64,000 nucleotides of DNA. Origin: Escherichia coli (GTDB taxonomy: Bacteria; Pseudomonadota; Gammaproteobacteria; Enterobacterales; Enterobacteriaceae). The notes beneath the pieces are model-generated. The model ran no database searches. It saw only the letters and a list, made by a program, of their open reading frames with translations, and was not told where the DNA came from. Within the stretch, counting starts at the first letter, position 1. The number at the start of each line of letters is the position of its first letter. Shown piece by piece: positions 55,091-56,645 of this stretch. The stretch lies in assembly GCF_044324875.1 (NCBI RefSeq), contig NZ_CP172185.1. The stretch is one strand, 5' to 3'. A program made the position numbers and the translations under genes.

Positions 55091-55183
55091 AAAAAAAACC
55101 GGATGCGAGGCATCCGGTTGAAATAGGGGTAAACAGACATTCAGAAATGAATGACGGTAATAAATAAAGTTAATGATGATAGC
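55091..55183 (-). ncRNA. micF: MicF antisense sRNA
   Basis: Minus-strand sequence gctatcatcattaactttatttattaccgtcattcatttctgaatgtctgtttacccctatttcaaccggatgcctcgcatccggtttttttt matches micF as I recall it, including the terminal stem-loop and U-run; divergent from ompC. Confidence 0.85.
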
Positions 55184-55329
55184 GGGAGTTATTCTAGTTG
55201 CGAGTGAAGGTTTTGTTTTGACATTCAGTGCTGTCAAATACTTAAGAATAAGTTATTGATTTTAACCTTGAATTATTATTGCTTGATGTTAGGTGCTTAT
55301 TTCGCCATTCCGCAATAATCTTAAAAAGT

Positions 55330-55410
55330 TCCCTTCTATTTACATTTTGAAACATCTATAGCGATAAATGAAACATCTTAAAAGTTTTAGTATCATATTC
55401 GTGTTGGATT
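55330..55410 (+). promoter_or_regulatory. OmpR-binding boxes of the ompC promoter
   Basis: tttacattttgaaacatcta (55338-55357) followed by aaatgaaacatcttaaaagttttagtatcatattcgtgttgg; tandem TTTAC/GAAACA-type repeats about 110-180 bp upstream of the ompC ATG. Confidence 0.6.
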
Positions 55411-55517
55411 ATTCTGCATTTTTGGGGAGAATGGACTTGCCGACTGATTAATGAGGGTTAATCAGTATGCAGTGGCATAAAAAAGCAAATAAAGGCATAT
55501 AACAGAGGGTTAATAAC

Positions 55518-56645
55518 ATGAAAGTTAAAGTACTGTCCCTCCTGGTCCCAGCTCTGCTGGTAGCAGGCGCAGCAAACGCTGCTGAAGTTTACAACAAAGA
55601 CGGCAACAAATTAGATCTGTACGGTAAAGTAGACGGCCTGCACTATTTCTCTGACGACAAGTCTGTAGATGGCGACCAGACCTACATGCGTCTTGGCTTC
55701 AAAGGTGAAACTCAGGTTACTGACCAGCTGACCGGTTACGGCCAGTGGGAATATCAGATCCAGGGCAACGCTCCGGAAAGCGAAAACAACTCCTGGACCC
55801 GTGTGGCATTTGCTGGTCTGAAATTCCAGGACATCGGTTCTATCGACTATGGTCGTAACTACGGCGTAGTTTACGACGTAACTTCCTGGACCGACGTACT
55901 GCCAGAATTCGGTGGCGACACTTACGGTTCTGACAACTTTATGCAGCAGCGTGGTAACGGCTTCGCGACCTACCGTAACACTGACTTCTTCGGTCTGGTT
56001 GATGGCCTGAACTTTGCTGTTCAGTACCAGGGCCAGAATGGTAGCGTAAGCGGTGAAAGTGATCCGGATTTCACTGGCCATGGCATCACCAACAATGGTC
56101 GTAAAGCTCTGCGTCAGAACGGCGACGGCGTTGGCGGATCTATCACTTATGATTACGAAGGCTTTGGTATCGGTGGTGCGATCTCCAGCTCCAAACGTAC
56201 CTGGGATCAGAACAACACTGGTCTGATCGGTACTGGCGACCGTGCTGAAACCTACACTGGTGGTCTGAAATACGACGCTAACAACATCTACCTGGCTGCT
56301 CAGTACACCCAGACCTACAACGCAACTCGCGTAGGTTCCCTGGGTTGGGCGAACAAAGCACAGAACTTCGAAGCTGTTGCTCAGTACCAGTTCGACTTCG
56401 GTCTGCGTCCGTCTGTAGCCTACCTGCAGTCTAAAGGTAAAAACCTGGGTGTCATCAAAGGTCGTAACTACGACGACGAAGATATCCTGAAATATGTTGA
56501 TGTTGGTGCGACCTACTACTTCAACAAAAACATGTCCACCTACGTTGACTACAAAATCAACCTGCTGGACGACAACCGCTTCACCCGTGACGCTGGCATC
56601 AACACTGATGACATCGTAGCTCTGGGTCTGGTTTACCAGTTCTAA
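55518..56645 (+). CDS. ompC: Outer membrane porin OmpC
   Basis: 375-aa [48 protein letters not shown]...LGLVYQF; canonical porin signal peptide and C-terminal Phe. Confidence 0.9.

Follow-up and report, generated by a model that had tools for sequence, protein, structure and literature searches.

Transcription of ompC in Escherichia coli is activated by the EnvZ/OmpR system through three binding sites, C1 to C3, and the same system also activates micF. The small RNA MicF pairs with the ribosome-binding site and start codon of the ompF mRNA, thereby blocking its translation (PMC7355843). Among the available structures of OmpC, the PDB entry 2XE1 has been identified as the protein of strain CFT073 (Lou et al. 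2011, PMC3203869; also PMC5056734). The residues that form the eyelet are K16, D18, R37, R74, D105, E109, and R124 in mature numbering, and OmpC variants with differing loops superimpose at about 0.4-0.5 Å (PMC3203869). Beck et al. (2016, PMC5056734) listed at least 220 distinct OmpC sequences, with the variants concentrated in loops L4 (33 variants), L5 (30), and L7 (13). The same authors showed that L4 and L5 decide the recognition of OmpC by CdiA-EC536; the OmpC proteins encoded by the ompC alleles of CFT073 and A35H are not recognised by this effector, and these alleles confer resistance to CDI-EC536 (PMC5056734).

The window analysed here is a stretch of 64,000 nt from E. coli (contig NZ_CP172185.1). 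The original prediction, made from the letters of the window, proposed an intact divergent micF/ompC pair at 55091-56645. These coordinates coincide exactly with the micF 3' end on one side and the ompC stop codon on the other, and both genes are present, on the minus and plus strands, respectively (Table 1). The pair is flanked by rcsD and apbE, and the order rcsD - micF - ompC - apbE is that of K-12 and other strains. A match to the locus was found in 5425 of 5426 complete E. coli genomes, where it is annotated as ompC beside apbE. The ompC product scores 757 bits with the NCBIfam model for porin OmpC (NF007841; cut-off of 484) and 469 bits with Pfam PF00267 (Porin_1), and the same reading frame reaches only 479.5 bits with the OmpF model and 451.9 bits with the PhoE model, both under their own cut-offs. 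Conserved features are in place, i.e. LPEFGGD at residues 128-134 (the PEFGGD motif of L3) and a C-terminus with an aromatic end (VYQF). The mature protein starts at residue 22, the position at which PDB chains such as 2XE1 begin. It is probably a trimeric general-diffusion porin of the outer membrane, because it shares about 97% identity with the crystallised trimeric OmpC of CFT073 (PMC3203869). We are thus dealing, with high confidence, with the canonical E. coli micF-ompC locus between rcsD and apbE, carrying a natural ompC allele that was already catalogued. An open reading frame of 364 codons also spans nearly all of ompC in antisense (55611-56705, minus strand); we rejected it as a gene, as it has no Pfam match and mirrors the reading frame of the codon-biased ompC.

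Table 1 Features of the micF-ompC locus. Nucleotide positions refer to the window and residues to the OmpC precursor.
Feature	Position	Strand	Residues or codons	Remarks
micF small RNA gene	55091..55183	-		93 nt; the Rfam RF00033 match extends one base, to 55184
micF intrinsic terminator stem-loop	55097..55119	-		10 pairs, then a U-run; terminator scan and RNA fold
Putative micF -10 hexamer, TAGAAT	55191..55196	-		7 nt ahead of the 5' end of micF; read from sequence
CT dinucleotide (GC in K-12)	55336..55337	+		abuts the 5' side of C1; in the 5' flanking part of the C1 oligonucleotide from PMC2586830
OmpR-binding boxes	55339..55398	+		C1 55339-55358, C2 55359-55378, C3 55379-55398; exact K-12 matches
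ompC core promoter (putative hexamers) and 5' leader	55404..55517	+		TTGGAT, 17-nt spacer, GAGAAT at 55427-55432, Shine-Dalgarno; identical to K-12
ompC coding sequence	55518..56645	+	375 codons and stop	signal peptide codons 1-21 (55518-55580)
Loop L1			46-55	DSSP of model
Loop L2			83-91	DSSP of model
Loop L3			116-144	DSSP of model
Loop L4 segment	56031..56126	+	172-203	DSSP of model; L4 allele b2
L4 extra codons relative to K-12	56061-56069; 56079-56081	+	D182-P183-D184; H188	alignment and DSSP of model
Loop L5 segment	56196..56240	+	227-241	DSSP of model; K-12 length, 7/15 positions substituted; allele a11 (CFT073 type)
Loop L6			268-279	DSSP of model
L7 extra codons relative to K-12	56448..56459	+	G311-V312-I313-K314	tip of the extracellular β14-β15 hairpin; allele g (TA124 type)
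Loop L7 (tip)			314-315	DSSP of model
Loop L8			349-365	DSSP of model
ompC intrinsic terminator	56664..56690	+		8-pair GC-rich stem, then a T-run; terminator scan (consensus match at 56664-56683)

A search of the region with Rfam returned micF as the sole convincing RNA match, covering the full length of RF00033 (model positions 1-94 of 94) with 116.8 bits against a gathering score of 79 (E 3e-19). A permissive Rfam scan of 54700-56900 also returned a Streptococcus pyogenes sRNA model overlapping the ompC terminator; with 21 bits against a required 64, it was taken as a chance match. The micF gene diverges from ompC, lies 334 nt ahead of the start codon of ompC, and possesses its own Rho-independent terminator. 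Its predicted fold consists of two hairpins, as expected for MicF, with a z-score of -5.4 relative to shuffled sequences. The gene had been described as recognisable base-for-base on the minus strand upstream of ompC. Its identity, strand, and location proved correct, but the agreement with K-12 is not strictly base-for-base because one position differs: 93 of 94 aligned positions are identical, and RNA position 83 (window 55102) is C here and U in K-12. The C allows a G-C pair in the terminator stem, where K-12 has G·U. Positions 1-82, including the entire 5' region that in K-12 pairs with the ompF mRNA, are those of K-12 MicF; the ompF gene itself is located outside the window. As the 3' half of micF was found exactly in 3238 of 5322 E. 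coli records, the form in the window is the majority form of the species and the K-12 form is the minority one. The region upstream of micF (55103-55335) is identical to K-12 and contains the hexamer TAGAAT, a putative -10 element of the micF promoter.

The whole rcsD-ompC intergenic region (741 nt) can be aligned to K-12 gap-free and shows 7 differences: 4 between rcsD and the micF terminator, the one in micF, and 2 adjacent ones at 55336-55337. From 55338 to 55520, a segment that comprises the OmpR boxes, the core promoter, and the leader, there are zero differences from K-12. The OmpR box array mentioned in the original prediction is indeed present: three tandem 20-bp sites, identical to those of K-12, sit upstream of the -35 hexamer, and C1 has the sequence of the published C1 oligonucleotide (PMC2586830). 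In our own reading, TTGGAT and GAGAAT would be the -35 and -10 hexamers of the ompC promoter. A scan for consensus promoters yielded 3 sites in the region against 3.5 expected in shuffled sequence, i.e. no excess, but such a scan is uninformative here because OmpR-dependent promoters have weak -35 hexamers. The two differences next to box C1 change GC to CT, which could shift the affinity for OmpR slightly; the exact 76-mer around this variant was found in 113 of 5369 E. coli records, indicating a minority form that is not unique to the window. Given this identity, we infer that the ompC promoter of the window binds phosphorylated OmpR and that its transcription is osmoregulated. Regulation would then proceed as in K-12: at high osmolarity, both ompC and micF would be activated by phospho-OmpR, and pairing of MicF with the translation start of ompF would repress OmpF.

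The original prediction also stated that the 375-codon ompC is longer than the K-12 gene and that the additional residues probably lie in an external loop. The gene of K-12 MG1655 has 1104 bp and 367 codons, i.e. 8 codons fewer. In a protein alignment, both sequences share 93% identity and gaps occur at two places only, corresponding to 4 residues in L4 and 4 residues in the L7 hairpin. In order to locate these residues in the structure, we relied on an AlphaFold model. An attempt with 12 near-identical OmpC sequences gave a pLDDT of 27.6 and was discarded, and a homologue search that returned only relatives of at least 85% identity was too shallow for modelling; it was used for the lengths and names of the OmpC proteins of Escherichia and Citrobacter. 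The model used throughout was built with a 71-sequence alignment of diverse porin representatives and reached a pLDDT of 89.9 and a pTM of 0.85, although the tip of L4 (residues 185-190) remained below a pLDDT of 50. According to Foldseek, its best matches are solved OmpC structures, namely 2J1N (TM 0.97) and 2XE1 (TM 0.96; 97% identity over 354 columns). The topology predicted by DSSP comprises 16 strands plus a split β1/β1', long loops that alternate with short turns, and an L3 that folds inward. Both the model and the crystal structure-based alignment of Beck et al. (2016, PMC5056734, S1 Fig), which labels the same two segments L4 and L7, place the added residues in external loops, as predicted.

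Among the 25 substitutions relative to K-12, 21 fall within L1, L2, L4, L5, and L8, and the other four are N317 (β15, beside the tip of L7), I106 (periplasmic turn), I109 (β6), and V300 (β14). At the codon level, there are 22 nonsynonymous differences in 126 loop codons and 3 in the 241 others, and synonymous differences number 17 in the loop codons and 12 elsewhere. The eyelet residues (K37, D39, R58, R95, D126, E130, and R145 in precursor numbering) are invariant. The statement that OmpC loops are hypervariable agrees with published data, as Beck et al. (PMC5056734) documented their variability under phage and immune pressure, to which contact-dependent inhibition has to be added.

The length difference could in principle reside in the signal peptide or in the membrane-spanning strands, or arise from a misplaced start codon or another annotation artefact, and DSSP does assign residues 311-313 to strand β14 and not to coil. 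We consider this explanation very improbable. The first 46 residues, 21 of which form the signal peptide, do not differ from K-12, nor do the start codon and the Shine-Dalgarno sequence. In the model, β14 (296-313) and β15 (316-334) are 18 and 19 residues long and are connected by a turn at 314-315, which puts the inserted residues at the hairpin tip, on the face that bears the other long loops. Both strands far exceed the span of the membrane in this model, and the inserted residues would lengthen a hairpin that protrudes outside it. In addition, the crystal structure-based annotation names this segment L7 (PMC5056734), and the OmpC in 2XE1 has the same length and aligns without a gap. The alignment to K-12 and mapping of indels, which had been suggested as a check, thus located none of the extra residues in the signal peptide or in the part of the barrel that crosses the membrane. 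An even less credible explanation is that the 375-codon frame results from a sequencing or assembly error or represents a non-functional copy. It could be invoked because none of the complete RefSeq E. coli genomes matches the DNA fully, with a maximum identity of 99.7%. However, the same DNA occurs in independent assemblies: over 7128 nt (52518-59645 of the window), we counted 0 differences from one public assembly and 2 from the complete chromosome CP057479.1. The exact 375-aa protein is encoded by 252 public contigs, under the name 'porin OmpC [Escherichia coli]', every indel is a multiple of three, and the promoter, leader, and terminator are intact. We retain the reading of a genuine allele with additional residues in L4 and in the L7 hairpin.

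This allele has been described loop by loop. The L4, L5, and L7 segments exactly match b2 (isolate H299), a11 (CFT073), and g (TA124), respectively, in the S2 Table of Beck et al. (2016, PMC5056734), and H299 itself carries b2/a11/i. In the accessible part of the S1 Table of that study, neither the b2/a11/g combination nor TA124 was found. At the DNA level, an ompC with at least 95% identity to that of the window is present in about 5% of complete E. coli genomes, and 9 records reach at least 99%. Among 59 genomes drawn at even intervals from a list ranked by similarity, the length of ompC varies from 363 to 376 codons: 363 (5 genomes), 364 (5), 365 (1), 367 (27), 368 (2), 372 (1), 373 (5), 374 (6), 375 (4), and 376 (3). 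The ompC gene of the window is an ordinary, already published allele, and its length is not unusual.

Regarding the direction of the length change, the view of the window's OmpC as the protein with extra residues was right in that it has 8 more than K-12 but has to be reversed for L7. The OmpC proteins of the outgroups (Citrobacter spp. and E. fergusonii) have a long L7 and, in some of them, a long L4. Because of these outgroups, it is the L7 of K-12 that should be called short rather than that of the window that should be called long, and the K-12 state looks like a derived deletion.

The divergence from K-12 changes abruptly along the locus, from about 1% in rcsD and the intergenic regions to 6.7% in ompC (with a further 24 gap columns), 3.5% in apbE, and 4.8% at the start of ada. 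Strain N3 shows a different pattern: it has just 4 differences from the window between 54953 and 56850 (0.21%), with diverged flanks on the left (13 of 935 nt, 1.4%) and on the right (43 of 1295 nt, 3.3%). Its ompC differs from that of the window by 3 nt and one residue (S181N). Because N3 is nearly identical across micF-ompC and diverged on both sides, it appears, from this one pairwise comparison, that a tract of about 1.9 kb was exchanged between backgrounds by homologous recombination. Together, the comparisons with K-12 and N3 point to a recombination boundary at ompC or close to it, and such an exchange would fit the modular way in which loops are combined according to Beck et al. (PMC5056734). 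The allele might also have another source: instead of being an old E. coli polymorphism, it could have been imported recently from Citrobacter, E. albertii, or a further Escherichia species. Citrobacter OmpC proteins have a similarly long L4 together with a long L7, one E. albertii OmpC, a member of the same 90% cluster, carries a related L4, and the synonymous differences from K-12 are enriched in the loops as well. Nevertheless, the L4 of Citrobacter (DDNGIAYTGV) differs from that of the window and its overall identity is just 87-88%, b-type L4 loops (b1-b4) are known from several E. coli alleles (PMC5056734), about 5% of complete E. coli genomes have an ompC with at least 95% identity to it, and the barrel-coding parts are typical of E. 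coli. Such an import is thus improbable, though less so than the explanations based on artefacts, and we favour an old polymorphism that would move between E. coli backgrounds.

Other observations were made in the window and in the records. Between glpQ and inaA, a segment of about 4 kb (14814-18870) is largely absent from K-12 and contains three ORFs: one of 368 aa (15034-16140, minus strand) without a Pfam or NCBIfam match, a LysR-family regulator of 292 aa (16570-17448, minus strand), and an MFS transporter of 396 aa (17600-18790, plus strand). The last 67 residues of the regulator match the 68-aa NCBIfam PRK09729, which we take to be the yfaH remnant of K-12. A full copy exists in 710 of 5426 E. 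coli genomes, O157:H7 among them, and K-12 and BL21-like strains retain about 11% of it. An intact ORF of 1539 aa (33850-38469) occupies the position of yfaS (alpha-2-macroglobulin-like), presumably a split pseudogene in K-12. Two adjacent matches to Rfam naRNA4 (84 and 64 bits), a family derived from REP elements, lie in the gap that separates rcsC from the convergent rcsB (51240-51430) and constitute an ordinary REP cluster. In the public records, NZ_CP158445.1 ('E. coli strain 536') encodes a 367-aa OmpC at 801-1904 (WP_000865551.1), the protein that the S2 Table of Beck et al. (2016, PMC5056734) assigns to F11 with L4 allele c1; its 'UPEC536' entry is WP_000865542.1, with L4 allele b1 and a mature protein of 354 aa. 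The mismatch, in labelling or in strain, has no bearing on the ompC of the window.

Concerning function, the channel properties of the window's OmpC should be K-12-like because L3 and the eyelet are unchanged. The allele would rather alter what binds to the cell surface, be it antibodies, CdiA effectors, or the tail fibres of phages; the PDB contains a complex of OmpC with the central tail fibre of a phage (9WCB, 2026). The b2/a11/g combination is outside the set of alleles that Beck et al. (PMC5056734) tested for CDI, and among those tested it is closest to CFT073 and A35H. On this basis, we predict that cells with this allele are resistant to CDI-EC536, and we also expect an altered spectrum of OmpC-dependent phages. 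A more tentative and rather doubtful proposal is that b2/a11/g, carried on the mobile tract of about 1.9 kb, constitutes a receptor class with its own phage and CdiA pattern, and that the CT variant beside C1 might travel with it and tune its expression.

The locus follows a textbook pattern in which a conserved porin barrel and a conserved regulatory region are combined with swapped surface loops. Docking by phages, CdiA toxins, and antibodies would depend on the allele, and its assignment to the b2/a11/g (CFT073-like) class helps to predict the host range of phages and CDI systems. Beyond this bookkeeping, its significance is small, as the allele, the structural class, and the principle were all published.

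In comparison with known systems, the locus shares much with K-12 MG1655 (OmpC in PDB 2J1N). K-12 MicF (Rfam RF00033) has the same position and orientation upstream of ompC as the micF of the window, and the gene order, signal peptide, L3, eyelet, L6, promoter, OmpR boxes, and leader are common to both; K-12 OmpC differs by its 8 fewer residues, 4 in L4 and 4 in L7. The closest described protein is the OmpC of the uropathogenic strain CFT073 (O6:H1), the best PDB sequence match (2XE1), which has the same mature length of 354 aa and aligns without gaps at about 97% identity. It shares L1, L2, and L5 (a11) with the OmpC of the window and its L4 is likewise of the b type. Nine differences separate the two proteins (window/CFT073): I109/F, S181/N, I218/V, G220/A, I222/V, I313/V, K314/A, R354/Q, and D358/A. 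S181/N distinguishes L4 allele b2 of the window from b1 of CFT073, whereas in L7 the window has allele g, with VIKG, and CFT073 has allele c, with VVAG.
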